This document shows positions 18,453-42,373 of a DNA stretch of 64,000 nucleotides, in pieces. Within the stretch, counting starts at the first letter, position 1; each line of letters begins with the position of its first letter. This DNA is from a virus. The translations under genes were made by a program, and so were the position numbers. The notes below the pieces were generated by a model. The model was not told the DNA's origin. It saw only the letters and a list, made by a program, of their open reading frames with translations, and did no database searches. Location of the stretch: the IMG/VR virus record IMGVR_UViG_3300002092_001594, positions 1-64,000 of that record. One strand, written 5' to 3'.

Positions 18453-18453
18453 A

Positions 18454-20535: not shown

Positions 20536-20951
20536 TAGTTATCTAAAAAAGTTTTATCTAAAGCTTGTCCTTCGTAGGGTCCTGTTTTATATTCATATAC
20601 TAGAGTATCGTCTTCTAGAATAAGATAGTTATGTCCTCCTTGTAGGGTAAAGCTAGCATCACCAACTTCAAGTACCGGCGAAGCGACAATGGTGTCATCT
20701 AAATCATAAAAGGTGCATTGAACTCTTCCTTGAATTACTATCCAACTCTCTTGAGCAATTACTAATCTATCTCTTTGCTTCCAAATATGTCTATGAGGTT
20801 TAAAAGTCTTACCCTTTTCCATATTGAGAATAGAGCATTGAATAAAGTTTTCTTCTGATACTATGTCCTGTCTTCCAGGTAGCATATCTTCCTTTCTTAC
20901 AATAATATGTAAGAGAGTTTCTGGTTCAATTTTAGAGTATATTTTTTCCAT
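20535..20951 (-). CDS. Cupin, WbuC/sugar-isomerase-like
   Basis: PHRH, QES, GGHN, EYKTGPY. Confidence 0.75.
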   Translation of the reverse strand: MEKIYSKIEPETLLHIIVRKEDMLPGRQDIVSEENFIQCSILNMEKGKTFKPHRHIWKQRDRLVIAQESWIVIQGRVQCTFYDLDDTIVASPVLEVGDASFTLQGGHNYLILEDDTLVYEYKTGPYEGQALDKTFLDN

Positions 20952-20952
20952 A

Positions 20953-22502: not shown

Positions 22503-23487
22503 TTAGTATAGTATTCATTTTTTTATTCCAAACTTCTAGATCGTAATACTTCCTGTAATTAGCTTTTGCATTTTCACTGCACGTGTTGTAGAAGTCTTGA
22601 TCGTCTCTTAATCTTATAGCAAGATTTCTAGCTTCTTTTATATTACTAACTTTTATTGATAGATCGGGATGACATATTCTCTGTGTATCTACATCTTCAT
22701 TTCCAATACAAGGTATTCCTAAGTAAGCACAGTTTAAGCTAAAAGTACCTGCTGCTACTGTAGGCATTAAATGTACTGCATATTTAAAAGTACTTAACTG
22801 TTTAATCCATTCATTCCACTCTACTCTTTCTAAATGCTTAAATACTTGCTCTTCATTATCTCTCTTTGCATGTGAGGACTGACCCCATATTGGAAGATTA
22901 AAAGCTTCTGCTACTCTATAGCTTTCAAAACCGCCGTACCATCTTGCGAAGTTACCGCCTATGATTACTTTATTTTCTTTTACTGGAACAATATCTTTAA
23001 TAAGTTCTTCAATCATTAAAGTTTGCATAGTGCGGATAACCTTATTTGGAAACAATCCTTCGTAGTATGCTTTATCAGATTCATTATGTGCAAATATTGA
23101 ATCACATTCATGTAGCATATTGTAGAAATTAATTTGATCATTAATTTCATAATCATTAAACCACCAATGAGGACCTTCCTGTACGTAGTGTATCTTTTTA
23201 TTATTCCCTGCTCTTAATAACTTAATTAATTCTGGAGTTATAAAAGGAGATGCAGGATTTTGTTCTTCTATTAACCTGCTTCCTTCTGCGCTCAGGTAAG
23301 TTTTACCTTTAGGGAATACAACAAATACATGATCGTAATCCTTAACAGTTTTGTTTATAACCGCGTAAACAATATTATGATGATCAGCATTTAATGCATG
23401 CATCCAAGCACATTCCGTTCTCATATTTGGAAAAGTTATAGGAACCTTTCCTTGACCTGGTATTTCACTTACAAATGCTATTCTCAT
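22489..23487 (-). CDS. GT-B fold glycosyltransferase-like protein
   Basis: C-terminal GTFSLNCAYLGIPCIG; island context. Confidence 0.6.
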   Translation of the reverse strand: MRIAFVSEIPGQGKVPITFPNMRTECAWMHALNADHHNIVYAVINKTVKDYDHVFVVFPKGKTYLSAEGSRLIEEQNPASPFITPELIKLLRAGNNKKIHYVQEGPHWWFNDYEINDQINFYNMLHECDSIFAHNESDKAYYEGLFPNKVIRTMQTLMIEELIKDIVPVKENKVIIGGNFARWYGGFESYRVAEAFNLPIWGQSSHAKRDNEEQVFKHLERVEWNEWIKQLSTFKYAVHLMPTVAAGTFSLNCAYLGIPCIGNEDVDTQRICHPDLSIKVSNIKEARNLAIRLRDDQDFYNTCSENAKANYRKYYDLEVWNKKMNTILNEAE

Positions 23488-24284
23488 AAATCTATTATTT
23501 CTATTATAGGTTGAGCTAGCCATTGCAAATGACAGATATTTTCTAACATTATACTCTTATAACTGCTATCTGCTATTCTAAAATCCTTGACTATATTTAA
23601 TAATTTAAAATACTTCTCTTTAGGTAATAAATGCTCTCTTGTTAAGTTATTTCTTTCTATACATTCTCTTAGTAATTCTTCATTACTTTTCATACCGTGT
23701 TCAAGCGGCTTACCGTTGTAGTTAGGAATAGTTTGTACTTTAACGTAAATTTCATTAAGATGATCTCTATCATTTAAGTAATTACACTTAGAAACATTTA
23801 AAAAGTAAAAAATTGTCTGAGGATAAAAGTCCTCTTCCATTACTTTATACAAATCGAAATTGTAATTATAGATTCCAGTATAACCAACTCCATTAAAATA
23901 ATAAAAATCTGCATCCCCTACTTCCTTATCAAGTGCTCCTTTTCTAAAGATCATATCATTAGAGGACTTACAGAGCCAATCTAAATTATTACTTTTACAA
24001 AAAGTGAAGATTGCATCATCTAAATCGGCAGTTCCAATTCCATGTCCTCTATTAATAGGTGAATGTAAAAAAATACAATTAAAGTACTTTTTCCACATTG
24101 CTTCATAATACGGTATAACTTCTTGATTATTAAAATTAGTAGCAACTACTATATGTTTGAATTCTTTTAATACAGGAAGATTATAGGTTATGTAGTTTTT
24201 TTCTAGAAAATCTACATCCTCTTTTGTACTTATGTACCCTATCGTACCGTAAGTAGATTTATTAGCTAAGTCTCTTAGTGTCAT
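23484..24284 (-). CDS. Putative GT-A-like glycosyltransferase
   Basis: NRGH..G..DLD, KSSND; island context. Confidence 0.45.
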   Translation of the reverse strand: MTLRDLANKSTYGTIGYISTKEDVDFLEKNYITYNLPVLKEFKHIVVATNFNNQEVIPYYEAMWKKYFNCIFLHSPINRGHGIGTADLDDAIFTFCKSNNLDWLCKSSNDMIFRKGALDKEVGDADFYYFNGVGYTGIYNYNFDLYKVMEEDFYPQTIFYFLNVSKCNYLNDRDHLNEIYVKVQTIPNYNGKPLEHGMKSNEELLRECIERNNLTREHLLPKEKYFKLLNIVKDFRIADSSYKSIMLENICHLQWLAQPIIEIIDL

Positions 24285-24505
24285 AATGCGCTATAGAAAT
24301 TGTTTTGTCTCTCTTGTCTTTCTATTCCTTTTGGATGATATAAAGAATAACCTTCCTCAGCAGGAAGCATTACATAACTATTATGTCCTGTAAGTACTTC
24401 GTGAACCTTACTAGCCCAGTTTATCTTAGGGGAATTTTGAAGGATTCTAGTTTGATAATCACAAAAGTTAATAATAGGGGCTTTGTATTTAACCTTTACT
24501 TTCAT
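24281..24505 (-). CDS. C-terminal part of split GT2
   Basis: DYQTRI...W..KVHE.L.G and LYHPK motifs typical of GT2 C-halves. Confidence 0.75.
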   Translation of the reverse strand: MKVKVKYKAPIINFCDYQTRILQNSPKINWASKVHEVLTGHNSYVMLPAEEGYSLYHPKGIERQERQNNFYSAL

Positions 24506-25037
24506 ACTTTCTTGATTTTCTATTTTTTGGGTAATTATGTTTAGTCTTTGGGGGTATTTTTAAATCTACGGTATTTTTTTTAAATTTCCAAATAAATCCA
24601 TTAGCTGATTTCTGTTTTCCTAAACAGCAAGCTGATACGCCGTTATAGTCTGTACCTATTCCTTGTTCGATAGGCTGTTTTGCATACTCCCACTCTTTAA
24701 TAAAATTTCCTTGTAAGTCATACTGAAGTACTGGTTTTAATCTAGGTACTCTGTACCTTATGTCCCATCTTCCTCCCCATGTTAGATTACCTCCGTTAAC
24801 TTTTGTTTTATATTCTCTTATATACTCTTCTTCTAAGCTATTTAATTCTTCTCTTAAACAGGAAGTCAATACCTGTTTTTCAAATCGAAGAAAAAAAGCA
24901 TCTAATCCAAAAAGTCGAATATACCTGTTTAAAATCTTACTTCCAGTCAAATAATTTTTATTAGCACCATTATGCTTACCTACATAATAAGGTTTACTTT
25001 TCTTTTTATCAAAAATTAAATAGATATAAGGTTTCAT
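24489..25037 (-). mobile_element. GIY-YIG homing endonuclease (Seg-like, NUMOD1-type tail) inserted in the GT2 gene
   Basis: YIY...YYVGKH, YLTGS, E..YI, NLTWGG; PVLQYDLQGNFIKEW..CC.G..KSA.GFIWK. Confidence 0.85.
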
Positions 25038-25038
25038 T

Positions 25039-25072
25039 AATTTTCCTGTTTATTATAAATATCAGGAAAATT
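25039..25072 (-). promoter_or_regulatory. 10-bp hairpin enclosing a class II promoter and occluding the endonuclease initiation region
   Basis: AATTTTCCTG-ATATTTATAATAAA-CAGGAAAATT then A-ATG. Confidence 0.65.
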
Positions 25073-25592
25073 GCTTTTCTTCTAAAACTAAGTTATGTTC
25101 TTTTAACATACTGTATTCTGCTAGATCTCGAGGATTATCTAGGTCAAATACTTTTTCTTTTATAATTTCTGGAAAGCTTCCTATATTCCACCCCCATTTG
25201 TTAATATGCTCTTGAGTTAATCCTTCTACTGTATTAATTCTAGGAACTAAAAATAAATCTACTGTAGGATTAGTCTGAAGGATAGAGGGAAGGTTCCTTA
25301 TTAAGCTATCGCTTAAATATTCATCAGCATCTATTTGAAATATCCAAGCTCCAGTACAGTGCTTCTTTAGATTATTCTTAAAGGCAGCAAAGTTTCCTTT
25401 TAATGGAAACTCTATTACATGAATGAAAGCTGAATACTTATCTAATATCTTATATACTTCAGGGGATGTATTACCTTGATCACATTGCACTACTACTTCC
25501 ATATCAGGAGTTTCGTGGAATAGTAAATGAGCTAATAATCTATCTAGTTCTTTATCTTCATTACAAACCGGTATTGCATAACTTATTCTCAT
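25062..25592 (-). CDS. N-terminal part of split GT2
   Basis: YAIPVCNE, FAAFKN, WIFQIDADE, PRIN. Confidence 0.85.
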   Translation of the reverse strand: MRISYAIPVCNEDKELDRLLAHLLFHETPDMEVVVQCDQGNTSPEVYKILDKYSAFIHVIEFPLKGNFAAFKNNLKKHCTGAWIFQIDADEYLSDSLIRNLPSILQTNPTVDLFLVPRINTVEGLTQEHINKWGWNIGSFPEIIKEKVFDLDNPRDLAEYSMLKEHNLVLEEKQFS

Positions 25593-25595
25593 AGT

Positions 25596-26039
25596 CTATT
25601 TTTCAAAGATTCCAATATAATCACAAGCCTCAATAAAATCTTCACCAAAGTGTTGTAAAGATTTAGCATCTGACTTATAGATTAGTCCTTTGTACTTAGG
25701 TTCTTGCTTCTCTTCTTCTGTTAAAGGTATAACTTTAATCGCAGACCAGTGTACAGTACTTACATCTGTTCCATTTAAAAATACAGTTCCTTTATCGGTA
25801 ATATTAATACTAATAGGATACCATATTCTTCCTTCACCGTCTTTGCCTTTTATATCTTTATAGAGTTCCGGAATAGTCTCTTCGTATTTTTCAAAATCAA
25901 ACTCTCCCTCTTTCATTAGGTCATTTGTTTGAAATCCACATCCCCAACAGAAATAGTTGTAAGCTGTTTCGTTGATTGGAGTTACGTAACATCCGTCGCA
26001 CTCACATAAAGGACATGTTGTTAGTTTATCGTTAGTCAT
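25596..26039 (-). CDS. Zinc-ribbon hypothetical protein
   Basis: CPLC...CWGCG. Confidence 0.65.
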   Translation of the reverse strand: MTNDKLTTCPLCECDGCYVTPINETAYNYFCWGCGFQTNDLMKEGEFDFEKYEETIPELYKDIKGKDGEGRIWYPISINITDKGTVFLNGTDVSTVHWSAIKVIPLTEEEKQEPKYKGLIYKSDAKSLQHFGEDFIEACDYIGIFEK

Positions 26040-26448
26040 TTAATAAAGTTTTATCTGTTGAATTTGTATAGCTAATTGTACTGCCCGATGGAAGTGATGT
26101 AGCAGTTGATGTTGTTCCAAATCCAAATGGTGGATTGGCTATTGTTATAGAACTACATCCAGGTGTTGTTGTTATTGTTCCGTATGGATTGATTCCCGAC
26201 CAATTTGGATAAACTGTTCTATGAGGGTTTTGATAAAATCCCTGGTCATTAACCTTAAATGAAGGTTGATTAGGATCTCTTTCGTAAGCACCCTCAGGTC
26301 CAATTGTAAAGTTATCACTTACGTAAGGAGTATCATCTACTTTATTAAGTTGTTCTTTTAAAGTCTCCCATTGTACAGGAGTTATGTTATATTGATGCAC
26401 TCCTTCAGAAAATCCTTTTAACCAGATTATAAAATCTTTACTAGTCAT
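26032..26448 (-). CDS. Hypothetical protein
   Basis: 138 aa, T/S-rich tail. Confidence 0.6.
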   Translation of the reverse strand: MTSKDFIIWLKGFSEGVHQYNITPVQWETLKEQLNKVDDTPYVSDNFTIGPEGAYERDPNQPSFKVNDQGFYQNPHRTVYPNWSGINPYGTITTTPGCSSITIANPPFGFGTTSTATSLPSGSTISYTNSTDKTLLND

Positions 26449-26449
26449 C

Positions 26450-27730
26450 TTATCCTATTTTAGTTAATTGTGGTAATTTAAATTCTACTTGCTTAGGTGC
26501 ATTTGCATACTTATCTAAGTATCCTTTCAAGAATAAAACCATATTATCAAAACTAAATTCAGTCTTAATTTTATGTCCTTGACGCTTACCCCTCTCTTCA
26601 TATTTCTTATAGTGAGCAAATACATCTTCCATAGCCTTAGCTGCTAGATTATGATCAATAGTAAACCATAAAGCACCTGGTAGAATTAATCCTTGAGATT
26701 GAGCTGAAGGATGAGTTTGAGTTAACTGACCTGGTATTAATACAGCAAACTCTCCATCTAGGAAGTCTACTTGACCAGACCATCCTGAAGCTATTACAGG
26801 TTTTTTAGATAAGCAAAACTCTGCAAGAGGTCTACCATATCCTTCTCCTTTAGCAAACGAAATCATTGCTTTTACTTTAGGATGATTATATAAGTTATTC
26901 ATATCTTCATCATCTAGATCACCATGTATTAAGTAGATATTAGGTAGATCAGAACCTTGTACTGAATTTCTAATAAAATCTATCTTCTTTAGTACTTCCT
27001 CTCTATCCATAATACAAGTAGTAGAGTTAGAAGTTTTTAAAATAAGAGCAGGTTTATTCTTCTTACCTTTAAATGTTTCTAAGAAAGTATGAATCATTTT
27101 ACCTACATTCTTTCTATCTTCTCCAAACTCTCCCTGTAACCAGTGTCCTACAAATAAGTAACAAAACTCTTCTTTAATCGTATCTAAGTCTAATACTAAA
27201 TCTGTTTCAGGTAAATCCTCGTCTGCAATAAAGAAGTACTTATTTAAGTCTGCTCCTTCGAATAGTACTTCTATAGGTTTTTCTAATTTAACTGTCTCAT
27301 TTGGATTTTCTTTCTTACCGTAACTAGTAGACTGTAATACAGCCTTAGCGTGATTAGAAGATACTAAAGTTAAATCCATTCTATTACATCCTTCAAGCCA
27401 AGTAGCATCACATACGGTAGTTTCAATACCGGCTGTAACTCCTATACTAACTCTACCTACGTGTTGAAATTCATTAGGTATAGTTACTTGAAACCAGTAG
27501 TCTGGTTGCTTAGTTAAAGGTTCTTTTAATAGTAATGGAATCATCCAACCCCATTCCTCTTTATAATCCTCTAAAAAGCCCCAAGAAGTATTTCCCCATC
27601 TTTGAGGCATTATTCGAATATCCCATTCGTCTTTCTTTAATTCGTAAAGGGCTTTTATAAAATCTCTTGATCTCGCTCCATAACCTGAATAGGTATCTGG
27701 TGGTGCTGATATAACGCAATATTGTTTCAT
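26450..27730 (-). CDS. Glycosyltransferase family 4 (GT-B)
   Basis: SGYG, DRKN, GEGYGRPLAEF, SGQVDF. Confidence 0.88.
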   Translation of the reverse strand: MKQYCVISAPPDTYSGYGARSRDFIKALYELKKDEWDIRIMPQRWGNTSWGFLEDYKEEWGWMIPLLLKEPLTKQPDYWFQVTIPNEFQHVGRVSIGVTAGIETTVCDATWLEGCNRMDLTLVSSNHAKAVLQSTSYGKKENPNETVKLEKPIEVLFEGADLNKYFFIADEDLPETDLVLDLDTIKEEFCYLFVGHWLQGEFGEDRKNVGKMIHTFLETFKGKKNKPALILKTSNSTTCIMDREEVLKKIDFIRNSVQGSDLPNIYLIHGDLDDEDMNNLYNHPKVKAMISFAKGEGYGRPLAEFCLSKKPVIASGWSGQVDFLDGEFAVLIPGQLTQTHPSAQSQGLILPGALWFTIDHNLAAKAMEDVFAHYKKYEERGKRQGHKIKTEFSFDNMVLFLKGYLDKYANAPKQVEFKLPQLTKIG

Positions 27731-27753
27731 GCTTTAAATATAAACTTTATTTT

Positions 27754-29184
27754 TTAATAAACGATTGGATGTGCTGATTTTTTTCTGGGTTGCTTTTCTA
27801 CCTTAATAAGTTCGTACTTATGTCTTGGCTTCCATTTAGCGAAAGTTTCTTCGATACCGTCAATAACGTTCTTAGACATCATTCTAGACGATTGCATAGA
27901 CTCATCTGAAGTAACCCATTCTCTAGCTGCTTGACCTCTTACCTCTCTTTCTTCTGGAGTTAAATCATAAACCTCTTTAATAGCTGCTGCAATATCTCTA
28001 AAGTCAGCTCTATCATCAAAGATGTATGGAGTTGGTATAGAACCTACGATACTCATATTACTAGGATATACCGGGAAGGCCCACTTGCCGTGCTTTTTAT
28101 AAGTACCGAAATGGTTAGAGCAGAAGTTTTCATTAAAGTCAATCCATTCCCCTTTTTCATTTTCAAATCTTAACTGGTCTTGCATACCACCTGTAACTGT
28201 AGCTATAATAGGCTTACCACACATCATGGCTTCAGTTAAAGATAAGCCCCATCCTTCGTTAGAAGAGATTAAAGCTGTAACATCTGCGCAGTTATACATC
28301 GTACTCATTTGATAAGGTGTGTATCTATTCTCACAGAAGACTACTCTTTGGTATTCTGGATCACAGAACAACTCTATTACTGTAGGTAGGTCTGTACCAT
28401 TTTCATCTAGCTTTTGAGTATGTAAAAGTAAAGCACATTTCTTAGCTTTCTCTTTACCTATCTTATCACAGAATTGAGCATATGCTAAAATTAAATCAGA
28501 AGTACATTTACGTCTAATATTTCTAGCATTATATAAAACTACAAACTCTGGTTGATTATCTCCAAAGTATTGCTTTCTCATTGCAATAACTTCAGGGTCA
28601 TTTTTACTCTTAACAGTAAAGACATCTTCATTAATACCGTGAGGTACATACTTAATAACTTTATCTTTAGCTTTCTCTCCTAATACAAGTCTGTTAATGT
28701 TAGCAGTTTGTTTTGAGATAGCTAATAAACCGTCGCAAGATTCGTAATAAGGCTTATTATACAGAGGAGCAGGTAAATCATCCCAGATGTTTAAATAAAT
28801 CATAGGAAGCTTTTTCCTTAATTCATTCTCCATTTGAAATAACCATATCCAATATCTTGGATCTGTAAAGAACATAATAGCATCTGGCTTCTCTAATTCG
28901 ATTACTTGACGAACTAACTCCGGACTACCATAGCCTGAGGTTGGAATTATAAACACTGAAGCATCTGGAATTCCTGCAAGCTGTGCTGTATCTTGACAGA
29001 TATCAAACCTCTTACCTTGATCAGGATGATTAATAGCAGCTCCTAGGTTTACCCAGTTAAAACGATGTGCTGTTCCAATGACAATTTCTTTAGCCATTGT
29101 AGAGATACCAGATGTAAATCTAATATCATCGCAGAGTAGTAGAATTTTCTTTCTATCTGCCTGTGAAATGTAACCTTCTTTCAT
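27754..29184 (-). CDS. Glycosyltransferase family 4 (GT-B)
   Basis: VPHG, RNIRRK, NEGWGLSLTEAMMCGKP, TGG. Confidence 0.9.
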   Translation of the reverse strand: MKEGYISQADRKKILLLCDDIRFTSGISTMAKEIVIGTAHRFNWVNLGAAINHPDQGKRFDICQDTAQLAGIPDASVFIIPTSGYGSPELVRQVIELEKPDAIMFFTDPRYWIWLFQMENELRKKLPMIYLNIWDDLPAPLYNKPYYESCDGLLAISKQTANINRLVLGEKAKDKVIKYVPHGINEDVFTVKSKNDPEVIAMRKQYFGDNQPEFVVLYNARNIRRKCTSDLILAYAQFCDKIGKEKAKKCALLLHTQKLDENGTDLPTVIELFCDPEYQRVVFCENRYTPYQMSTMYNCADVTALISSNEGWGLSLTEAMMCGKPIIATVTGGMQDQLRFENEKGEWIDFNENFCSNHFGTYKKHGKWAFPVYPSNMSIVGSIPTPYIFDDRADFRDIAAAIKEVYDLTPEEREVRGQAAREWVTSDESMQSSRMMSKNVIDGIEETFAKWKPRHKYELIKVEKQPRKKSAHPIVY

Positions 29185-33155: not shown

Positions 33156-33365
33156 TTACTTAGAAGCTGAATCTAATTCTGCTTTTCTCTTTTTGTTTAA
33201 CTCTTTGTAGTAGTTAGTGTCTTGCTTTACTTCTGGAGTAGCTACACTTGTGTCTACTGTAGTAGAATCAGTACTTACTGTAGTTGAATCAGTTTTTACT
33301 TCAGTAGAAGTACCACCACATGCAGTTAAAGCTGCGATAGCAAACATTGCGATTACTTTTTTCAT
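33156..33365 (-). CDS. Small lipoprotein
   Basis: MKK-hydrophobic-LTAC lipobox; DSTTV repeats. Confidence 0.8.
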   Translation of the reverse strand: MKKVIAMFAIAALTACGGTSTEVKTDSTTVSTDSTTVDTSVATPEVKQDTNYYKELNKKRKAELDSASK

Positions 33366-34439: not shown

Positions 34440-34473
34440 GTAAAGGTAAGGAGACTTATTCAGACTATCAACT
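34440..34473 (-). promoter_or_regulatory. Class I promoter
   Basis: AGTTG-N20-TACCTTTAC. Confidence 0.7.
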
Positions 34474-34475
34474 TT

Positions 34476-35804
34476 TTATATGTTTATTTTTGAACCTAAA
34501 GCAAATACAGACATCATTGGAGTACTTGGATTAGTACTTATATTAACTTTAAAATTAATATTTAACTTAAACCTTTTAGAAAATCTAATATCTGTTCCGG
34601 CACCTGTAAAAAAGGAAACGTTAGCGTCGTAGGTTGCTTTCTTATCTTTCTGTCCAAACATTACAGGAGAGGAAATTACATAGATTTCTGGAGAGATTGT
34701 TTGCTTTTTACTAATCTGGAAAGGTCTGGTATAAAAGGTTATGATAGATGGTGATAGCATAACTTGATTACCTGTTAAGATAAGGGAATTTCCACTTAAA
34801 GCAAGTCCTGCAACAGCTCCTTTATCTAGAGGCTTGACAAAGCTCCATCCGTAGAAAATAAACTTATTGTTCCAGTCCGTTACATAGGTTATGCTAGTGG
34901 AAGTTACTCCATATACTTTTCCATTCTTCATTATAATATCAGAAGTACTTCCTCCGATTACTATTTGTTTTAAATCTAACCTAATTGAAGTACTTAATCC
35001 GTAGCTAAACATTCCTTCGTTTAAAGTCTTAGACATATTAACATTGAAAGTAGGTACTATAGTCGTACCCATTTGCATTACGGATAGATCTGCCTTAACT
35101 ACAGGAGGGTTAGCTTTTCGCTCTTCTTGTTTCTTTTTCTTCTCTTCTTTTTGCTTTTTCTTCTCTTCAGATTTTTTTTCTGATTTAGATTCTGATTTAC
35201 TTTCAGAAGAGCTGCTTTTACTCTCAGAAGAACTACTACTCGACCCTCCTTCTGATTTGCTTTGCCCTCCTTCGCTGCTTCCCGATGAGGAACTGGACGA
35301 AGACGATTCCCCAGAAGAGGATGACGATTGGGATTGTGAGGATGATCCCGACGAAGTTGATGGAGAGGAGGAAGATGCTGCTGAACTCGAAGCACTTGAT
35401 GCGGCGGAAGAAGCAGCGGAAGAAGCACTTGAACTTGCTGAAGAGGAAGCTGAGCTTGCTGCAGCGGAAGCGGCGGCTGAAGCGGCTTGTGAGGCTGCAT
35501 TGGATGCAGCTTGAGCGGCTTGTTGTGCTACCGTTGCTGTTATGGCTACTGGACATGGCGTTGAAAAGATTTCATTAACCCATTTAGTTACAGTTCCAGA
35601 AGCGAAGTCGGCGTATGTGAAAAGTCTAGATTTACTTCTAATAAGTACTAGTACTCCAGGTTGATTAGATGAGATAGGAACTACTACTGTGTAAACTTTG
35701 TTATCACAGGGGTCAATGTAGGTTTGAACAATATTCTGACTGTTAGCTTTAAAAGCTATTAAAAACAAAACTGATATTAGGGTACTTAATATCCATTTTT
35801 TCAT
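34476..35804 (-). CDS. Exported protein: N-domain, Ala/Ser stalk, Lys/Glu segment, putative C-terminal beta-barrel
   Basis: Signal peptide; two Cys; low-complexity linker; amphipathic beta-strands. Confidence 0.6.
   Translation of the reverse strand: MKKWILSTLISVLFLIAFKANSQNIVQTYIDPCDNKVYTVVVPISSNQPGVLVLIRSKSRLFTYADFASGTVTKWVNEIFSTPCPVAITATVAQQAAQAASNAASQAASAAASAAASSASSSASSSASSAASSAASSASSSAASSSSPSTSSGSSSQSQSSSSSGESSSSSSSSGSSEGGQSKSEGGSSSSSSESKSSSSESKSESKSEKKSEEKKKQKEEKKKKQEERKANPPVVKADLSVMQMGTTIVPTFNVNMSKTLNEGMFSYGLSTSIRLDLKQIVIGGSTSDIIMKNGKVYGVTSTSITYVTDWNNKFIFYGWSFVKPLDKGAVAGLALSGNSLILTGNQVMLSPSIITFYTRPFQISKKQTISPEIYVISSPVMFGQKDKKATYDANVSFFTGAGTDIRFSKRFKLNINFKVNISTNPSTPMMSVFALGSKINI
35143..35530 (-). 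repeat. Low-complexity Ala/Ser/Glu/Lys codon repeats
   Basis: Encodes AASSAASS..SSSSSESKS..EEKKK. Confidence 0.8.
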
Positions 35805-35806
35805 TA

Positions 35807-36220
35807 TTAATGTCTACTTCTATAAGAAGGACTTGGTGTATAATGGTACTTAGGTCGAGTAGGAGTTACGATTTGTTGTCTATAAACCGGGACTTGAATA
35901 ACTAAAGGGTAGCTGTATCCGTTATAAAAGTTATATCTGTTGTAAAACCACAAATCAGATGTTAAATTAATACTTGTATGCGGTATTACTGTAGGTGAGT
36001 TATCGTAGTACTTGTTTATAGTGCGTATTTGTTTACCTGTACTGTCTGTAGTTGTTGTTTCTACAATTTTGTAAGGAGCTTCACACGCAAATAAAAACAC
36101 TAGTATAAGTAATGCTGCTAATTTCTTTAATATTAATAAATTACTTTTCACTAAATTTAATTTCTTAACTCCAGATCTTCTAGATCTCATTGGACGTTTT
36201 TTTGGTGCTGCTGTTCCCAT
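35807..36220 (-). CDS. Putative lipoprotein with basic N-terminal extension
   Basis: LAALLILVFLFAC lipobox at about residue 46; Y/P-rich tail. Confidence 0.55.
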   Translation of the reverse strand: MGTAAPKKRPMRSRRSGVKKLNLVKSNLLILKKLAALLILVFLFACEAPYKIVETTTTDSTGKQIRTINKYYDNSPTVIPHTSINLTSDLWFYNRYNFYNGYSYPLVIQVPVYRQQIVTPTRPKYHYTPSPSYRSRH

Positions 36221-36227
36221 AGTTTAA

Positions 36228-36953
36228 TTATTTAGTAAATATTTTTTTATCAACCATTCTTTTTAGTATTCTCGCACAAGCAATATCTAAAGCTTTCTTA
36301 GTTGCTATTGATACTGTTGATTGATTAAATTTAACTGGATCTACCGTAGCATCTGAAAGGAAAGTTAATTCTCTAGTTGTCTTAGCTTCACCAAGTCCTG
36401 ATGCTGCTATAATTTCTCCTGTCTCTGCATTTGTAAATCTAACTTGAAGACCTAAGCGAGTTACCATCTGATTCTTAACTCCATTAGATAAATTTATTTC
36501 TTCGTCATCTGATACAGACCAATCATAAACTTCAATCTCTACAAAGTAATGTGCAAGTCTAATCTTACCTCTACCATCTAGTTTGTCTTGCGAGATTCCC
36601 GCTTGTGAGGCTTGGAACTGCTTAACCATTCTGTTTTTAATCTCTGTCTTATCCTCTGTAAACGTAAAGCGGTTAAGATTTTCAAGATATTCCAACGAGA
36701 TGTTAGCTACACCTAAACCTACTCTCTTTTCTTTGAGTTCTGGATATTGTTCGTAGACTTCATCTCCAATACCACATTTAAGAATTTGTATTGGTATTGT
36801 TGGCCCTTCATAATTTAAAAATTGACTAATATCGATTTTAGTTTCAAAGCTTGCTCGAAATTGTTCTGTCTTTGTTGACCCTATAGTCTGAGCAATTACA
36901 GCACTGCTTATTAAAAAGCAACCTAATAATATAAATAACTTTTTCATACACAT
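36228..36953 (-). CDS. CsgG/HfaB-family protein
   Basis: Signal peptide; L...RF..E; LQVRFTNAETGEII..G.G; C-terminal A.KKA helix. Confidence 0.7.
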   Translation of the reverse strand: MCMKKLFILLGCFLISSAVIAQTIGSTKTEQFRASFETKIDISQFLNYEGPTIPIQILKCGIGDEVYEQYPELKEKRVGLGVANISLEYLENLNRFTFTEDKTEIKNRMVKQFQASQAGISQDKLDGRGKIRLAHYFVEIEVYDWSVSDDEEINLSNGVKNQMVTRLGLQVRFTNAETGEIIAASGLGEAKTTRELTFLSDATVDPVKFNQSTVSIATKKALDIACARILKRMVDKKIFTK

Positions 36954-37168
36954 TACTTCTTTTCTGGTTTTTTATACCAAATATTGTCTGGAGAGTTTTT
37001 AAATGTTCCGTCTACTTTCCACATTATTTCATTACCTACTTTTGTATTTAGCTCTGGATTACAAAAGTGAGTTACAATCATAAAAACTTCAAAACTTAGA
37101 GCTAGTATCGTCCATGCAAAAAGTAATTGAGCAAGTCTTAATACTATGGTTTCGCTTATCTTTTTCAT
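36953..37168 (-). CDS. Small membrane protein
   Basis: One long hydrophobic segment. Confidence 0.55.
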   Translation of the reverse strand: MKKISETIVLRLAQLLFAWTILALSFEVFMIVTHFCNPELNTKVGNEIMWKVDGTFKNSPDNIWYKKPEKK

Positions 37169-37171
37169 ATA

Positions 37172-38089
37172 CTATATTTTTATATTTCCTTTATTTTCAA
37201 TTTTAATTTTAATTTTAGGTTCGTACCCTTTAGGAAGTAGATTCTCTACTGTTTCTAACTTACCGTGCTTGTTATCCATACGTACTGTTACAGTCTTAGT
37301 ATCGCAGTTCATCATAATTTGACCTACTGTTTGCATATGAAACTTATTATCAATCCTATATGGATTTAAAAAAGGATTATCTTTGTATTTTTTCTTCATT
37401 AGATCTAACACATCTTGATCTGTCTTAGCATGTTGAAGATGATTTTTAGCAAGATCCATTCTACTGTGAGAAGATTGCTCTTTAGGACCGCTTTGATATC
37501 CTAAATGCTTATGGTAGATACCGTGGTTAGTTCTAACTATTACCTTCTTATCGTTTTTTAACTTTCTAATAACAGGAACATCCACGCTTGAATGCTCTAC
37601 AACATAAATACTCTTACCATCACTAACAATAGACTCACCTGAAACTCCTTTAAACTCAGAACTACCATCGCCTCTTGTACTTATTAGTACCTTGATAGCA
37701 TCTCTAATATTTTTCTGAGTTAGTACTTGTCTAATTTTAGCGCCGTCGGTTGCATGTTGAGGATTTTTACTCTTATCTTTATTGTCAGCCTTTTCTTCTC
37801 TTTTCTTTTCTACCTTATCGGTTTCTTTTTCATCATCCCCTACCATTAAAGAAGAGTTAACAATACCAATACCGAATTCATTCATACCTTCAGACCAGTC
37901 AGTATCAATATCATGCCAATAGACCATTTCTACGTTGTCTACTACTTCATGTACAATTTCCATTTTGGCATCATAACCTCTATCTCTGTTTTTAGCCAAA
38001 ACAATGCCATCACCAAGTCTTACACCAGCAACAACACATTCTAATAACCGTTCCTTTTTTATTTCTTTAAGGATTTCTATTAATTTCAT
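37172..38089 (-). CDS. Ntn-hydrolase (Cys nucleophile) with short propeptide
   Basis: CVVAG...LAKNRDR, EGMNEFG, VRTNH. Confidence 0.75.
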   Translation of the reverse strand: MKLIEILKEIKKERLLECVVAGVRLGDGIVLAKNRDRGYDAKMEIVHEVVDNVEMVYWHDIDTDWSEGMNEFGIGIVNSSLMVGDDEKETDKVEKKREEKADNKDKSKNPQHATDGAKIRQVLTQKNIRDAIKVLISTRGDGSSEFKGVSGESIVSDGKSIYVVEHSSVDVPVIRKLKNDKKVIVRTNHGIYHKHLGYQSGPKEQSSHSRMDLAKNHLQHAKTDQDVLDLMKKKYKDNPFLNPYRIDNKFHMQTVGQIMMNCDTKTVTVRMDNKHGKLETVENLLPKGYEPKIKIKIENKGNIKI

Positions 38090-38355
38090 TATTCTTCAGT
38101 TTTAGCTTCATCAGCTGGTGAATCTTTTTTCTTGGCTGTAAATTTATCTAAGGTATCAGCACCCATTCCAATTGCTGTGATTACCATTACTGCATTTACT
38201 AATTCAGCAGCCGGTTTGAAATGTTCATCTGTGAAAGAGTTTGCTAGCATAGTTCCACAAAGGAATAATGCACCAAAAAATGCGATTACAGGTTTAACTG
38301 AAATAGTACCTCTTTCGTCTTTAAAAAGATCAATTACCCATTCTTTAAAAGTCAT
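38089..38355 (-). CDS. Two-TM holin-like protein
   Basis: FKD..G..S.K, two TM segments, DKF, charged tail. Confidence 0.5.
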   Translation of the reverse strand: MTFKEWVIDLFKDERGTISVKPVIAFFGALFLCGTMLANSFTDEHFKPAAELVNAVMVITAIGMGADTLDKFTAKKKDSPADEAKTEE

Positions 38356-38380
38356 AGTTGTAAATTTTACTTATTATAAA

Positions 38381-38728
38381 TTACCATTTAGGAGCTTCTT
38401 CTTTAAATTCGTCTCCGTCTTTCTTTTTAGTTTTTGGTTGTGGTTTATTTATTTGCTTTGCTTCATTACTCTTCTCCTTAACTATTACTGTTTTAGTAGA
38501 AGTAGTTTGTTGACCCGGAACAGTAATGTTAATACTTTGCGGTTGTACTTGTTTATCGCTTTCTTTTGGTTTTTGTAAATAAGACATTAAAAATGTACCG
38601 CCTCCAACTACTAGAGTAGATACAGTACCTATAAGGGTCTTTTTTAAACCAGTCATAGTACCGTCATTATACTTTTCATTCTTAGCCATCGATGACTCCT
38701 CTACTGCCTTCTTTGTTACTTTTGCCAT
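38381..38728 (-). CDS. Single-TM protein with disordered tail
   Basis: LIGTVSTLVVGGGTFLM. Confidence 0.6.
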   Translation of the reverse strand: MAKVTKKAVEESSMAKNEKYNDGTMTGLKKTLIGTVSTLVVGGGTFLMSYLQKPKESDKQVQPQSINITVPGQQTTSTKTVIVKEKSNEAKQINKPQPKTKKKDGDEFKEEAPKW

Positions 38729-38734
38729 ATTAAA

Positions 38735-39085
38735 TTATTTTATAATAACGGGACGTTTAGTTTCATTACCGTTTATATCTATAAATATCAAGTTATAGTC
38801 GCTTTTTGGTATTTTAGATAAATTATATACTTTTGTTACAGAATTAGAGTTAGCTGTAAATCCTTCTGTTATTACCGGGGTAAATGAACTGAATGGAGTA
38901 ATCTGCACTGAGTATTTAGCTCCTTGAGTAACAGCAAATTCCACAGTAATTATGTTATTTTCCTGTGTTAAGCTGCTTATAGCTGTTGAAGTTGATTTTA
39001 CACCTAAGTCAATCACCGGTAAGGTAGTTACTGTTTTAGTGCATGCTGCTAAGAATATAACCGTTGTTAGTATTAGTTTTTTCAT
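38735..39085 (-). CDS. Lipoprotein resembling a stand-alone T9SS C-terminal sorting domain
   Basis: LAAC lipobox; NLSKIPKSDYNLIFIDINGNETKRPVIIK. Confidence 0.55.
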   Translation of the reverse strand: MKKLILTTVIFLAACTKTVTTLPVIDLGVKSTSTAISSLTQENNIITVEFAVTQGAKYSVQITPFSSFTPVITEGFTANSNSVTKVYNLSKIPKSDYNLIFIDINGNETKRPVIIK

Positions 39086-39086
39086 A

Positions 39087-40841
39087 TTAGAAATTATTAT
39101 ACCCTGTTAATTTGATTGATATTGTATTTAAGTTAATTCCTAGTTGATTACCTTTATTATCAGAAGCATCCATTGTGGATCCTACTTTAATTGCAGTAGT
39201 TAGGTTAACTCCATCTCCTATAGAAGAAAACTTAAGTGTAAAAGGAGTTTGTGCTCCTGTAATAGGCGCTTTCAGGTCTCTGTTAACAGCTCCAAATTTA
39301 ATTCTACCAGATTTAGAATTAGCAAATGTAAACCAAGTATTAGGTAAGTTAGAGGCTAGGCTTTCAAATTTAATTTTTGTAGTATCGTAATAGAACTCAA
39401 ATTGCAAAGCTCCTACGTTGTTAACTGTATTAATATTAACTGGTACTTCTATTGTATTAGTTGTTACAGTTACATTACTTAAATTAACGTCTACAGGAGC
39501 TTTATTAACATTAGGAGTATTTACGTATTCAACTGCGAATGATTGTATTGTTCCATCAGAAGCAACTACTTGTGAACTGTGTGATCTGTTTATGTCTCCG
39601 GGAATAACATACTTTAAGTTTAGTGGTAAGTTTGATCCTATTTTACCTGTCTTAAAATACACGTATCCGGTTTTAATACTAGGCCAATCAGCTATACTTA
39701 AATTATTAAATAAAGAATCTGTAAATGTAGGAACATCTAAGTATATGTCCGTGCCTGGTCTATATGTAGCAGGAAGTGTGTATAGTGAATCTACTCCTAC
39801 TGATTGAGCAAAGATTCTAGTAACATCTCCGCCATCAAATACATAATTTTTATTTACATCAGCAGATAAATAGCCAATACCAGTCTTGATATTAGATCCA
39901 GTAAATGTACCGTCTAAGTTTTGATTAGTAAATTCAGTTTGTGCTGCAGTAAAATCACTTACAGTCACAGCAGCATTCATAATATCTTTTACTACATCAG
40001 CACTTACTCTAACACTCACCTGGTATACCGTATTAGCTTTAAATCGAGTTTGATCTATTGCAAGACTCCCGTCGTCATTAGCATCTACTAAGTACGTTGT
40101 TTTAGCAACTGTATCTGTAAATGCTATTCTTGTAAGGGTAAATTGAGATAAAGCTCCATTAGTTTCTACATGCCCTTTAATATAAGATTCAGAATTAGGA
40201 TCTAAGTACACCGGAATGCTTAGCGGAGTTTCCTGTATTGTAGCTCCCTCTGTACCGTTACTATTAAATGCAGCAGCAAAGTTCATTCTAATAGGATCAA
40301 ATGTAAGACCTACTGCATTAGCGTTTAATTTAAATGTTAATTTTTCTAATCCCCAGTAACTGCTGTAAGGCATTGCTGCAGTAGTAGCCCAGTTTAAGCT
40401 GTGTCTAATAATAGTGTGATTACCGCCGTTTGTATAGGTGTAGTTACAGTTACTATAATCTATATTACCGTTACTAGTTGTGTTAGCTGAAGTCTGAGCA
40501 AATCTATAACCCGGATATAGGTAGTAGCTTTCTGAAATTTGAGAACCTGCAGGAAGTACTCCTCCGTTACCTGCAGTACCGCTATTACTAATACTTAATA
40601 ATGTTAAAGCTGTATTCTGATACTCAAAATCAAAATACAACTGTCTTGCAGTACTATTACCGTTACCGTTAGCTGCTACGTAGATTACTAATGTATCACC
40701 TTTTTTAAGCGTATTACCGTAAGCATTAAGCTTAACAGTATCGCCTGTAGCATTAGGTTGAGTACTCAGTTTTAACTTAATGTTTTGTCCAAATGTTGTT
40801 AATCCTACGAAAAGCAGGATACTAGTTAATAAATGTTTCAT
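39087..40841 (-). CDS. Exported cohesin/dockerin-like multidomain protein
   Basis: Signal peptide; ADVNKNYVFDGGDV and GDIN Ca-loop-like motifs; cohesin-like VPVNI..VGALQFEFYYD..KF. Confidence 0.6.
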   Translation of the reverse strand: MKHLLTSILLFVGLTTFGQNIKLKLSTQPNATGDTVKLNAYGNTLKKGDTLVIYVAANGNGNSTARQLYFDFEYQNTALTLLSISNSGTAGNGGVLPAGSQISESYYLYPGYRFAQTSANTTSNGNIDYSNCNYTYTNGGNHTIIRHSLNWATTAAMPYSSYWGLEKLTFKLNANAVGLTFDPIRMNFAAAFNSNGTEGATIQETPLSIPVYLDPNSESYIKGHVETNGALSQFTLTRIAFTDTVAKTTYLVDANDDGSLAIDQTRFKANTVYQVSVRVSADVVKDIMNAAVTVSDFTAAQTEFTNQNLDGTFTGSNIKTGIGYLSADVNKNYVFDGGDVTRIFAQSVGVDSLYTLPATYRPGTDIYLDVPTFTDSLFNNLSIADWPSIKTGYVYFKTGKIGSNLPLNLKYVIPGDINRSHSSQVVASDGTIQSFAVEYVNTPNVNKAPVDVNLSNVTVTTNTIEVPVNINTVNNVGALQFEFYYDTTKIKFESLASNLPNTWFTFANSKSGRIKFGAVNRDLKAPITGAQTPFTLKFSSIGDGVNLTTAIKVGSTMDASDNKGNQLGINLNTISIKLTGYNNF

Positions 40842-40844
40842 AAT

Positions 40845-41327
40845 TTAGAGTAATTTTGTCACAACCGAAACGCATGCTTTTTTTATTGCATTTCTTTGTA
40901 CGGCAGAATTAAACTGACCTCTTTCATTTATCAACAACGTGGATGTACTGATCTCAGAGGATCTGTCTTCAGTATTTATAGTTTTTAGTACTTTTCCAAA
41001 TCCATCAGATAAAGTACCTTTCATCCTTATTACAACTTCGTTCTTATCTTCATGGAAAACAGAAACACCTTGTTTTGTTTGTTCTACATCAAAAAAAGAA
41101 ATTTCGACATCTATAACGTAATCAGCATCAAATCTATCTACAAGAGTGAAGCCCTTATCTTGAAGGGCCTCTTGTATTACGTTTTTAACGCCAAAAGCCA
41201 GGTTTTTATTTCCTGTTAAAGGACCTGCTTTGATATTATTTACAATAGTTCCAAGAGCAGCTTTATTTTGGGCTCTACTTGAAACCCCTATTAATGTCAT
41301 AACCATAATTAAGAAAACTAGTTTCAT
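40845..41327 (-). CDS. Short CsgG-fold exported protein
   Basis: Signal peptide; shares GV.N...E.L and FN......A.KKA with 36228..36953. Confidence 0.55.
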   Translation of the reverse strand: MKLVFLIMVMTLIGVSSRAQNKAALGTIVNNIKAGPLTGNKNLAFGVKNVIQEALQDKGFTLVDRFDADYVIDVEISFFDVEQTKQGVSVFHEDKNEVVIRMKGTLSDGFGKVLKTINTEDRSSEISTSTLLINERGQFNSAVQRNAIKKACVSVVTKLL

Positions 41328-41357
41328 TACGGTTTAGATATAAATAGGATATATGTC

Positions 41358-42011
41358 TTACTTAAATTTAAATCCTGTCAGTTTTTCTACGTCTCCTACT
41401 GTAACTTCATGTGAATGTAGTCCGACTGGTTTATCGGCGGTATTATCGAAGATATATGCTTGATACTCTTTAAGCTTTACTACGTAGATAACTTTCCAGC
41501 ATTGTTTAGGAACGGATACTTTACCTATTTTTTTTGCAACACCTACTGAACCTGCCCAAACGTGTACACTGTCACTTTGTAAAGCAATAGCTCTTTCTAC
41601 AACTTCCAAAGCTTTCCAATCACCTGCGTTTAAGCTGTGATACTGAGGTGCCATGTTAGAAAAGTAAAAACACTCTGTTTGAACCATATCTCCTTGGCAT
41701 TGATTTTCTGCTGCAGGACACATATGACCTCTATCTGTACCTGAACCTACGTAGTCTTTCATAAGATCGGTTTCAGTTTTTAATAATGGATCTGGTGCGA
41801 ATTGATCTTTACGTGCAAGTTGGTTTGCACAACTTACTTTAGCTTTAGTTACATACCATTCGACTAGTACCGGGTAGTACTTAGACTTACTGAATACTGT
41901 AGTGTAATTAGTATGCTTAATACGAACTGTATCTTGTGCATTTAATGCAAGTACTACAAATATGCTCAAAAAAGCAATAAGTGCTAATGTTAGTAAAAGT
42001 TTCTTTTTCAT
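41358..42011 (-). CDS. DNA/RNA non-specific endonuclease (NucA-like) with signal peptide
   Basis: DRGH, SNMAPQ...N..W..LE, VPK..WK; true start MKKKLLL. Confidence 0.9.
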   Translation of the reverse strand: MKKKLLLTLALIAFLSIFVVLALNAQDTVRIKHTNYTTVFSKSKYYPVLVEWYVTKAKVSCANQLARKDQFAPDPLLKTETDLMKDYVGSGTDRGHMCPAAENQCQGDMVQTECFYFSNMAPQYHSLNAGDWKALEVVERAIALQSDSVHVWAGSVGVAKKIGKVSVPKQCWKVIYVVKLKEYQAYIFDNTADKPVGLHSHEVTVGDVEKLTGFKFK

Positions 42012-42040
42012 ACTTATAAATAGTTCATACTTATAAATAG
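42007..42040. repeat. Tandem 17-bp duplication TTCATACTTATAAATAG
   Basis: Exact copies at 42007-42023 and 42024-42040; third copy at 45959-45975. Confidence 0.9.
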
Positions 42041-42373
42041 TTATAATGCAAAACTTTCTCCGCATCCGCAAGTGCGAGAAGCATTTGGATTAATAAATTG
42101 AAATCCTTTACCGTTTAATCCATCACTATACTCTAATTGTGTTCCAAATAGATATAGTAAAGATTTCCTATCTATTAGTATCTTTAAACCAGCTTCTGAT
42201 TCTACAATTTCATCTGTTTGATCAATATGATCATCGAAATCCATTACGTAAGATAAACCACTACATCCTCCTCCTTTAACGCCAACTCTTAAGAAATGAG
42301 TATCAGGAGTAACTCCTTCTTCCATCATTAAGCCGATAACGTGATTTAATGCTTTCTCTGTAATTGTTACCAT
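42041..42373 (-). CDS. iscA: IscA/HesB Fe-S carrier
   Basis: GGGCSG, NPNA..TCGCGESF. Confidence 0.95.
   Translation of the reverse strand: MVTITEKALNHVIGLMMEEGVTPDTHFLRVGVKGGGCSGLSYVMDFDDHIDQTDEIVESEAGLKILIDRKSLLYLFGTQLEYSDGLNGKGFQFINPNASRTCGCGESFAL

Follow-up and report, generated by a model that had tools for sequence, protein, structure and literature searches.

A conserved block of exported envelope proteins, including a CsgG-fold protein and a stalked β-barrel, in a large freshwater phage

Here, we analyzed a block of genes in a 64,000-nucleotide stretch of viral DNA (the window), namely, the first 64 kb of the 115-kb IMG/VR record IMGVR_UViG_3300002092_001594, which has a CheckV completeness of approximately 66%. 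The block lies at positions 34476 to 41327 on the minus strand, to which all coordinates of its genes refer, and comprises ten tightly packed, co-oriented open reading frames (ORFs) encoding proteins of 160, 584, 116, 115, 88, 305, 71, 241, 137, and 442 amino acids (aa). A previous reading of the letters alone (the sequence-only reading) had taken this region to be a phage-encoded envelope module. Our results agree with an exported, co-conserved module, given that nine of the ten ORFs carry export signals and that their synteny is kept. One product, the 241-aa protein, has the fold of the curli channel protein CsgG, as judged from its predicted structure, and another, the 442-aa protein, is predicted to be a stalked outer-membrane β-barrel. 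We tentatively favor the view that the block encodes an exported outer-membrane assembly that would remodel the envelope late in infection. This reading, which we hold at somewhat less than an even chance, covers the remodeling assembly as such and not any single benefit to the phage.

Export signals and synteny of the block

Plain signal peptides were found in the 160-, 584-, 241-, and 442-aa proteins, and lipoboxes were found in the 116-aa (LAAC) and 137-aa (LFAC) proteins. Membrane segments are present in the 115-aa protein (a type II anchor), the 88-aa protein (two transmembrane segments), and the 71-aa protein (a small membrane protein), leaving a 305-aa C45 hydrolase as the sole ORF of the block without an export signal. 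The sequence-only reading had correctly recognized a co-oriented block with envelope signals on most of its genes, but its figures of nine genes, eight of them with such signals, are replaced here by ten and nine, respectively. By a crude hydrophobicity count, the rate of export signals in the remaining 115-kb genome is approximately 8%, against nine of ten in the block (binomial tail, approximately 1e-10). The block is probably one transcription unit. Ordinary virion tail parts were rejected as an explanation because of the export signals and the location of the block among metabolic genes.

Homologs of the 241-aa protein were found in 484 viral contigs, and in the best 80 of these 484 loci its identity ranges from 77 to 92%. 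Gene presence was counted with family hidden Markov models (HMMs) on 44 loci covering the whole region. The 442-aa and 115-aa families occur in all 44, a short basic peptide encoded here within the 137-aa ORF in 42, a 584-like gene in 40 (in one to four copies), the family formed by the 160- and 71-aa proteins in 34, and the 88-aa family in 31, with a 91-aa homolog replacing it in the others. The 116-aa lipoprotein was detected in 30 of the 44 loci by its family HMM, and a more sensitive profile search located it in most loci, as an ORF of its own and frequently in two copies. The kept gene order is 160, 584, 116, 115, 88, a slot of variable content, 241, peptide, and 442. Together with the two families present in every locus, this order supports the proposed module as co-conserved and syntenic across related phages. 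In the same loci, the median identity of the 241-aa protein is 83%, compared with 26 to 54% for its neighbors, and such slow evolution would fit contact with a conserved host component. The set is also carried by a cultured phage, Flavobacterium phage vB_FspM_immuto (immuto), as gp012 to gp019, among which are a nuclease (gp012), a C-type lectin (gp013), a cohesin protein (gp015), and homologs of the 115-aa (gp016), 241-aa (gp017; 50% identity), 442-aa (gp018), and 160-aa (gp019) proteins.

Predicted folds of the exported proteins

The most conserved gene of the module (36228 to 36953) encodes the 241-aa protein, a secreted, nonlipidated member of the CsgG superfamily. The protein itself remained blank in Pfam (E ≤ 0.1), PHROGs, NCBIfam, and PDB sequence searches, and the Pfam CsgG model (PF03783) matched nothing at an E value of ≤10 in a six-frame translation of the genome. 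When 1.8 billion representatives were searched with a profile, 250 relatives were recovered, and among 36 aligned full-length members of the family, 13 match Pfam CsgG (best E value, 1.9e-17) and 6 match LpoB. Membership in the CsgG group is therefore transitive and at the superfamily level. Features from a protein language model likewise point to CsgG/HfaB clusters. Alignments of the 241-aa, 160-aa, and broad CsgG-like families gave no CsgG, YajG, or TraT match against PDB sequences, and an exact-cluster look-up of distant CsgG-like relatives returned neither names nor taxonomy.

The AlphaFold2 model of the 241-aa protein has a pLDDT of 82.5. Its top Foldseek matches are CsgG structures 4uv2 and 4uv3 (E value, approximately 1e-7), and VIA aligned 173 to 199 of its residues with CsgG at Z scores of 12 to 13. 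Lower VIA matches were Cj1090c, PelC (Z, 10.2), LptE (Z, approximately 8.4), FlgT, and TraT (Z, 7.4), and among viral proteins, the closest structural match bears the name CsgG and comes from an uncultured phage. From the model and the transitive Pfam membership, the CsgG fold and superfamily that had been read from this gene can be regarded as settled, although the predicted fold does not settle whether the protein forms a membrane channel. The model contains one long hairpin (residues 136 to 175) with a polar, acidic tip, and the region of a second hairpin (residues 197 to 213) has a pLDDT of approximately 50. In the phage clade, the signal peptide is plain and ends in ..AQ before T, without a conserved cysteine. 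A candidate lipobox (LLGC, residues 9 to 12) was rejected because its cysteine varies among relatives.

The 442-aa outer-membrane protein (34476 to 35804) is composed of a signal peptide, an N-domain (residues 24 to 80), a stalk (residues 85 to 230), and a barrel (residues 235 to 441). As seen in the family alignment, the N-domain spans approximately 60 residues and has two conserved cysteines. The linker is Ala/Ser-rich, then Ser-rich, and then Lys/Glu-rich, with a length that varies in the family, and the conserved C-terminal domain of approximately 210 residues ends in a hydrophobic residue. AlphaFold2 predicts antiparallel strands in residues 235 to 441 (pLDDT, 80 to 88), forming a 12-stranded barrel with a helix just before it, a result that upholds the stalked β-barrel of the sequence-only reading. 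Foldseek ranked FapF first (1e-7), followed by other small barrels, and VIA gave Z scores of 19.9 for EspP, 19.7 for NalP, 18.3 for AaaA, 18.2 for KdgM (root mean square deviation, 2.4), and 17.1 for FapF. Since 12-stranded barrels all score alike, only the architecture is established by these matches. The alignments with EspP and NalP begin at model residues 74 to 80 and cover 225 to 239 residues, which is longer than the barrel, and the preceding helices have a low-to-medium pLDDT. In the model, signal, passenger, helix, and C-terminal barrel follow one another as in a type Va autotransporter. No autotransporter Pfam family was matched at an E value of ≤0.05 by the 36 members of the 442-aa family, which gave low-complexity noise only, and a homolog search with the barrel region returned close relatives only, none with a Pfam label. 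Several ORFs of 97 to 156 aa at 35044 to 35578, on both strands, overlap the linker of the 442-aa gene and were discarded as low-complexity artifacts.

Between the genes of the barrel and the CsgG-like protein lies the 137-aa ORF (35807 to 36220), in which a conserved 35-residue basic peptide (36117 to 36220) is fused to a lipoprotein precursor carrying the LFAC lipobox. In most relatives, the 35-aa basic ORF stands alone, directly after the CsgG-like gene (for example, L007:8739-8846 and L046:7300-7407). The peptide, with the consensus MGTAAKKKRPMRSRRSGVKK..LVKKNLAILxKLK, is strongly basic and partly amphipathic, and it might be a cationic membrane-active peptide or a nucleic acid binder.

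At the other end of the block, the 160-aa protein (40845 to 41327) is a secreted YajG-like (Lipoprotein_16) protein with a signal peptide and no lipobox. Its score against Pfam PF03923 is 21.4 bits, below the cut-off of 25; nevertheless, 20 of 27 relatives match this family (best E value, 2.4e-6), and many of its database relatives bear a precomputed PF03923 label. Weak DUF4136 matches were seen in a few members, and weak TraT matches (1.4e-4) were seen in 3 of 27. The family has more than 3,500 relatives, mostly of 212 to 219 aa, and in most of them the YajG-like domain is preceded, within one protein, by a membrane helix and a WKxDGxFKNxPxNIWY segment. The 71-aa membrane protein (36953 to 37168) carries this same motif and corresponds to the detached N-terminal anchor of the family; therefore, the 71- and 160-aa ORFs are linked. 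A lipoprotein signal is absent from the 160-aa protein and its relatives; the former has a plain signal peptide, and most of the latter have a membrane helix at the N terminus.

The sequence-only reading had called the genes at 40845 and 36228 two CsgG paralogs, on the basis of the motifs GV.N...E.L and FN......A.KKA. Both motifs are indeed present in both proteins and nowhere else in the six-frame translation of the genome, but the patterns were taken from these same two proteins, so this uniqueness test is post hoc and paralogy is unproven. A direct BLASTP comparison of the 160- and 241-aa proteins was not significant, and hhalign of the 160-aa protein with CsgG-like families covered only 20 to 28 columns, at the first shared motif, with a probability of 5 to 10%. 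The product of the gene at 40845, with a YajG match that lies below the Pfam cut-off, is thus not supported as a second CsgG paralog. At most, it and the 241-aa protein have a superfold in common, which is plausible since TraT and LptE share the superfold of the 241-aa model.

The 584-aa secreted protein (39087 to 40841) contains a C-terminal cohesin-like domain (residues 461 to 565) and one dockerin-like Ca-binding loop (residues approximately 330 to 348). The domain scores 22.7 bits against Pfam Cohesin (PF00963), for which the cut-off is 24.1 (E value, 1.2e-4), and 17 of 30 relatives match the same family, the best at 6.5e-10. In comparisons with PDB profiles, the protein gave weak matches to scaffoldin cohesins, and its one conserved repeat, ADxNxNxxFDxxD, matches the PDB dockerin ScaH (E value, 4e-4). 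Pfam Dockerin_1 (PF00404) was matched by 2 of 30 relatives, at 0.0023. A second adjacent repeat, which a dockerin proper possesses, is absent from the 584-aa protein. Hence, the proposed cohesin/dockerin protein retains its cohesin-like domain and one Ca loop but not a proper two-repeat dockerin. Relatives carry PA14, C-type lectin, GLEYA, or CarboxypepD_reg domains, and three relatives carry a type IX secretion system (T9SS) C-terminal domain (CTD). The genuine CTD at the end of one lineage (33.4 bits) argues that the family is destined for the cell surface.

Directly after this gene, a stand-alone ORF (38735 to 39085) encodes the β-rich 116-aa small lipoprotein. The sequence-only reading had described it as a T9SS-CTD lipoprotein. 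The lipobox is clear, but no T9SS-CTD profile (PF18962 or TIGR04183) was matched in the protein (Pfam E ≤ 0.1; NCBIfam E ≤ 1), and hhalign against the true CTDs of related phage proteins gave 1.7%. A detached T9SS tail was also considered and rejected, there being no profile support and the gene always standing alone. One hint to the contrary is that the 116-aa gene and a CTD-bearing cohesin protein occur together in 0 loci; 41 and 4 loci have one of the two, and 12 have neither, with the CTD loci forming a single lineage.

Genomic setting, expression, and possible roles

The window also encodes a DnaB-like helicase, ribonucleotide reductase, a family A DNA polymerase, GroEL, Fe-S assembly proteins, and glycosyltransferases. 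Because the 115-kb record also contains, further along, genes for a tail sheath and a tail tube, the source is a large myophage. The nearest cultured relatives, by DNA or protein, are immuto and, for a 53-nt stretch, Chryseobacterium phages, and the same DNA was found again in freshwater and lake metagenomes from several studies. The source is a large lake-water phage of Flavobacterium-type bacteria. A run of glycosyltransferase genes, with genes for a GtrB-like protein and a nucleotide-sugar epimerase, extends from 17211 to 29184 (minus strand), and a Nol-like carbamoyltransferase is encoded further on (genome positions 89687 to 91240), suggesting that the phage also modifies surface glycans. 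Outside the block, downstream of a thioredoxin gene, a 69-aa small lipoprotein (lipobox LTAC) is encoded at 33156 to 33365 (minus strand). Adjacent to the block on its upstream side is the gene of a 237-aa DNA/RNA nonspecific endonuclease (41358 to 42071, minus strand; Pfam Endonuclease_NS, 1e-36). This nuclease has a strong N-terminal hydrophobic signal and is probably secreted, as far as its sequence tells. It adjoins the module in 15 of 44 loci and in immuto (gp012), and it probably travels with the module.

Several of the small membrane proteins bear on a possible role in lysis. The 115-aa type II inner-membrane protein (38381 to 38728; transmembrane segment, residues 32 to 48) has an invariant C-terminal tail, KKxxDEFK....W, and its last 15 residues, KKKEGDEFKEEAPKW, are almost invariant across all relatives, so that the tail looks like a docking peptide for a conserved partner. 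The topologies of the 115- and 116-aa proteins, encoded by adjacent genes, fit a two-component spanin, with a periplasmic part of only approximately 65 residues in the 115-aa protein. The 88-aa protein (38089 to 38355) is holin-like, with two hydrophobic transmembrane segments and a charged, Lys/Glu-rich C-terminal tail, and is 59 to 85% conserved. It is homologous to the 91-aa family (hhalign, 95%; E value, 2e-8), whose members occupy this position in other phages. In several related loci, the 91-aa family stands directly beside a PG_binding_1+GH19 endolysin, which lies within or adjoins the module in 16 of 80 loci. Part of the block thus looks lysis-related and, going by these neighbors, probably belongs to lysis. 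Five endolysin Pfam families had no match in the 115-kb record, which is approximately 66% complete, and no homologs of the endolysin, lipase, or other slot proteins of the relatives were found in it; this result does not extend to the third of the genome that the record lacks. This phage also lacks a membrane protein of approximately 208 aa whose gene separates the 115-like from the holin-like gene in 54 of 80 related loci (for example, L062:4273-4899).

Here, the slot flanked by the holin-like and CsgG-like genes contains the gene of the 305-aa C45/Ntn-hydrolase family protein (37172 to 38089; NCBIfam C45_proenzyme, 5.4e-12; Pfam AAT, 3.7e-6), which was found in 0 of 44 fully covered related loci. 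By this comparison, it is a lineage-specific insert in a variable slot. Elsewhere the slot holds a PG_binding_1+GH19 endolysin or a class 3 lipase, and in other relatives a TonB-dependent-receptor-like barrel with a 400-aa lipoprotein or a GT2 glycosyltransferase with a metallophosphoesterase (examples of such cargo are L028:4455-7912, L044:7209-7952, L008:6321-7735, and L062:5999-6835). In related phages, the slot therefore appears to be a hot spot for envelope-related cargo.

With regard to expression, the class II motif reported at 41340 is present as the promoter-like 8-mer CTATTTAT (41340 to 41347, minus strand), 20 nt before the first ATG of the block. This 8-mer is enriched between genes (14 of 56 intergenic regions) and lies 12 to 29 nt ahead of many ATGs, including those of the tail sheath and tail tube genes, an arrangement that would fit late expression of the block. 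Two tandem copies are found upstream of the nuclease gene, at 42040 and 42023. A class I promoter reported at 34440 could not be confirmed; the site is a 10-of-12 sigma-70-like match whose −10 hexamer lies within the next gene, and such matches are rarer than in shuffled sequence. In a sigma-70 and terminator scan, sites were no more numerous than in shuffled sequence, and none of the listed sequencing runs holding the stretch is recorded as RNA.

If the block indeed encodes an envelope-remodeling assembly, its products would pass through the host Sec pathway and reach both membranes and the periplasm of the infected cell, and the host BAM machinery would insert the 442-aa barrel. The barrel would place its N-domain on a stalk, either outside the cell, in an autotransporter-like manner, or across the periplasm, in a FapF-like manner. 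Beneath the outer membrane, the CsgG-like protein would form a ring, comparable to the arrangement of CsgG, PelC, and LptE with their barrels, and the YajG-like protein and the small lipoproteins would join this ring. The cohesin/lectin proteins would act as variable cargo on or outside the surface, and the infected cell or its debris, coated with glycan-binding proteins, could gain adhesion, receptor masking, or exclusion. The trio of the 116-aa lipoprotein, the 115-aa type II membrane protein, and the 88-aa holin-like protein would contribute to lysis control. A further proposal, possible but rather doubtful in our view, is a self-contained, virus-encoded display system of the outer membrane, made up of a CsgG-type periplasmic ring, an autotransporter-type barrel with its stalked N-domain as an anchor, and exchangeable lectin-cohesin proteins that would dock on this anchor. 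If so, late-infected cells or debris would be coated with glycan binders, capturing new hosts and/or masking receptors, and the block would define a class of phage envelope machinery that is new and common among phages of freshwater Bacteroidota.

A number of observations weigh against an outer-membrane assembly of this kind. Neither Pfam CsgG nor Pfam Autotransporter directly matches a protein of the window, and the single long hairpin of the 241-aa model is fairly polar, the second being of low confidence. The 241-aa protein lacks a lipobox, and distant relatives in its alignment carry a ..GC lipobox cysteine. Nonlipidated E. coli CsgG stays soluble. Furthermore, both the barrel and the CsgG-like gene persist in lineages whose 584-like protein ends in a T9SS tail; therefore, they are not simply the export route of that protein. 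Nonlipidated E. coli CsgG is also described as a pre-pore conformation that is not membrane bound (PDB 4uv2 entry title). The 8-mer CTATTTAT also lies ahead of metabolic genes, such as that of NifU, and of the nuclease, and late expression is therefore not proven. In addition, genes for endolysin and holin-like proteins change place within and near the module, permitting a reading in terms of lysis.

In that reading, which we consider unlikely but deserving of attention, the whole block would be machinery that lyses the envelope of Bacteroidota. The holin role would fall to the 88-aa protein, that of inner- and outer-membrane spanins to the 115- and 116-aa proteins, and that of a cationic outer-membrane disruptor to the 35-residue peptide, while the CsgG-like, YajG-like, and barrel proteins would weaken the outer membrane or time its breakdown. 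The endolysin beside or within the module in relatives, the homology of the 88-aa protein to the endolysin-associated 91-aa family, and the class 3 lipase in the same slot of another lineage all favor it, as do the type II topology and invariant tail of the 115-aa protein, encoded after a small lipoprotein, the basic, partly amphipathic nature of the 35-aa peptide, and the promoter-like motif common to the tail genes. However, lectin, cohesin, and T9SS-tail proteins and a stalked barrel are foreign to known lysis pathways, and no endolysin was found in the incomplete 115-kb record. The 116-aa protein, with approximately 100 β-rich residues, is unlike o-spanins, which are short and proline-rich, and the periplasmic part of its presumed partner is small. 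The position of the endolysin also varies, so it may be only a neighbor of the module. In favor of lysis, a lysis-regulating role has been proposed for the CsgG of phage Melnitz (PMC9004378). Somewhat less likely still is a set for superinfection exclusion or receptor masking, comparable to TraT, Llp, Cor, Lom, and Bor, in which the YajG/TraT-like protein, the barrel, and the lectins would occupy or hide the phage's own receptor; later phages would be stopped, and progeny would not be lost on infected cells and debris. TraT, to which 3 of 27 members of the YajG-like family have their weak matches and which shares the fold of the 241-aa model, forms an outer-membrane decamer that mediates surface exclusion (PMC11733297), and E. 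coli YajG was reported to be surface-exposed and to copurify with LptDE (PMC12065857). Moreover, the lectin heads of the 584-like proteins are swapped between phages around a constant core, as expected if they track variable host glycans. Nevertheless, known exclusion factors are single genes and not ten-gene cassettes, a superinfection block would be expected to be expressed early and not late, and the 160-aa protein, unlike TraT and YajG, has no lipid anchor.

An export or uptake conduit made of a CsgG/PelC-like ring and the 12-stranded barrel appears improbable. Such a conduit would carry unfolded polypeptide, as in curli or Fap systems, a glycan made by the phage glycosyltransferases, or nutrients inward. 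CsgG and PelC-PelB are ring-plus-barrel exporters and are both among the structural matches of the 241-aa model; FapF, KdgM, and NanC are among the best barrel matches; the glycosyltransferase/epimerase cluster lies in the window, at approximately 17 to 29 kb; and both uptake and fiber export have been proposed for the CsgG of pelagimyophages (PMC7029224). On the other hand, the ten ORFs yielded no csgE, csgF, or curlin-repeat matches (Pfam, PHROG, and NCBIfam), and neither curlin-like nor Fap-like repeat subunits were found in the block. The absence of curli CsgA/B repeats, already remarked upon in the sequence-only reading, was thus borne out by Pfam. A helix predicted with the barrel appears to match the pore helix of autotransporters, the like scores of all 12-stranded barrels give no preference to FapF or KdgM, and the CsgG-like protein lacks a lipid anchor and a clear pair of transmembrane hairpins. 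An exported assembly that remodels the envelope remains our preferred reading of the block, at the tentative strength given above.

Relation to known systems

Among uncultured large phages that infect Bacteroidota abundant in lakes and the sea, hundreds keep the cassette, and the CsgG-like gene is among the most conserved genes common to these phages. If the block serves to place lectins on infected cells or governs outer-membrane breakdown, it would bear on how phages find hosts in dilute water, on the loss of progeny on debris, and on how Bacteroidota are lysed without recognized spanins. Since immuto, a cultured phage, carries the set (gp012 to gp019), the question can be tested at the bench. 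We found no description in the literature of this module or its partners in Flavobacterium or Bacteroidota phages, in line with the statement of the sequence-only reading that it knew of no characterized system with this make-up. However, phage CsgG clusters as such are already published, since CsgG/CsgF clusters are encoded by pelagimyophages (the HTVC008M group) and by the OM43 phage Melnitz (PMC7029224, PMC9004378). Through the present block, the "phage curli" observation, made in SAR11 and OM43 phages, would come to include a further phylum in which the partner proteins differ.

Like the pelagimyophage and Melnitz clusters, the block belongs to a lytic aquatic myophage and is a small operon for exported proteins that includes a CsgG-superfamily member but no recognizable curli subunits. 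Those proteins are recognized directly as CsgG and are accompanied by CsgF (PMC7029224, PMC9004378), whereas here there is no direct Pfam CsgG match, neither CsgF nor CsgE was seen, and the protein is not a lipoprotein. The partners also differ, being autotransporter-like barrel, YajG-like, cohesin/lectin, and holin-like proteins, and the hosts are Bacteroidota. With the CsgG channel of curli (type VIII secretion; PF03783), the 241-aa protein shares its fold (Z, 12 to 13) and, through 13 of 36 relatives, its Pfam family. It differs from CsgG in having no lipobox, only one confident long hairpin, and no sequence match to solved CsgG chains, and it is approximately 40 residues shorter than E. 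coli CsgG. CsgA, CsgB, CsgE, and CsgF of the curli system were not seen either.

Ring-barrel pairs offer a second comparison. The 241-aa model matches PelC (Z, 10.2) and LptE (Z, approximately 8.4), the ring lipoproteins of the pairs PelC-PelB and LptE-LptD, and a barrel gene always comes after the CsgG-like gene, the two abutting in immuto. We infer from this that the CsgG-like protein and the barrel may pair physically. Unlike PelB and LptD, the barrel here is predicted to have 12 strands and to be autotransporter-like, not a 16- or 26-stranded exporter. The type Va autotransporters NalP, EspP, and AaaA share with the 442-aa protein, as modeled, the succession of signal peptide, passenger, helix, and C-terminal 12-stranded barrel (Z, 18 to 20). 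Departing from them, its family has no Pfam match in 36 members, and its passenger is of approximately 60 residues on a low-complexity stalk of approximately 130 residues.

The 584-aa protein resembles cellulosome modules in its cohesin-like domain, suggested by Pfam and PDB profile searches, and in a Ca loop plus helix that corresponds to one dockerin repeat. Unlike in the cellulosome, there is one repeat and not two, the cohesin lies just under the Pfam cut-off, and the setting is a Gram-negative phage without glycoside hydrolases. Finally, TraT, lambda Lom and Bor, and T5 Llp are outer-membrane proteins or lipoproteins by which mobile elements alter the cell surface, and in this respect they are akin to the block. 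TraT has its superfold in common with the 241-aa model and weak matches in 3 of 27 members of the 160-aa family. Whereas each of these factors is the product of a single gene, the lytic phages described here carry a conserved cassette of approximately ten genes.

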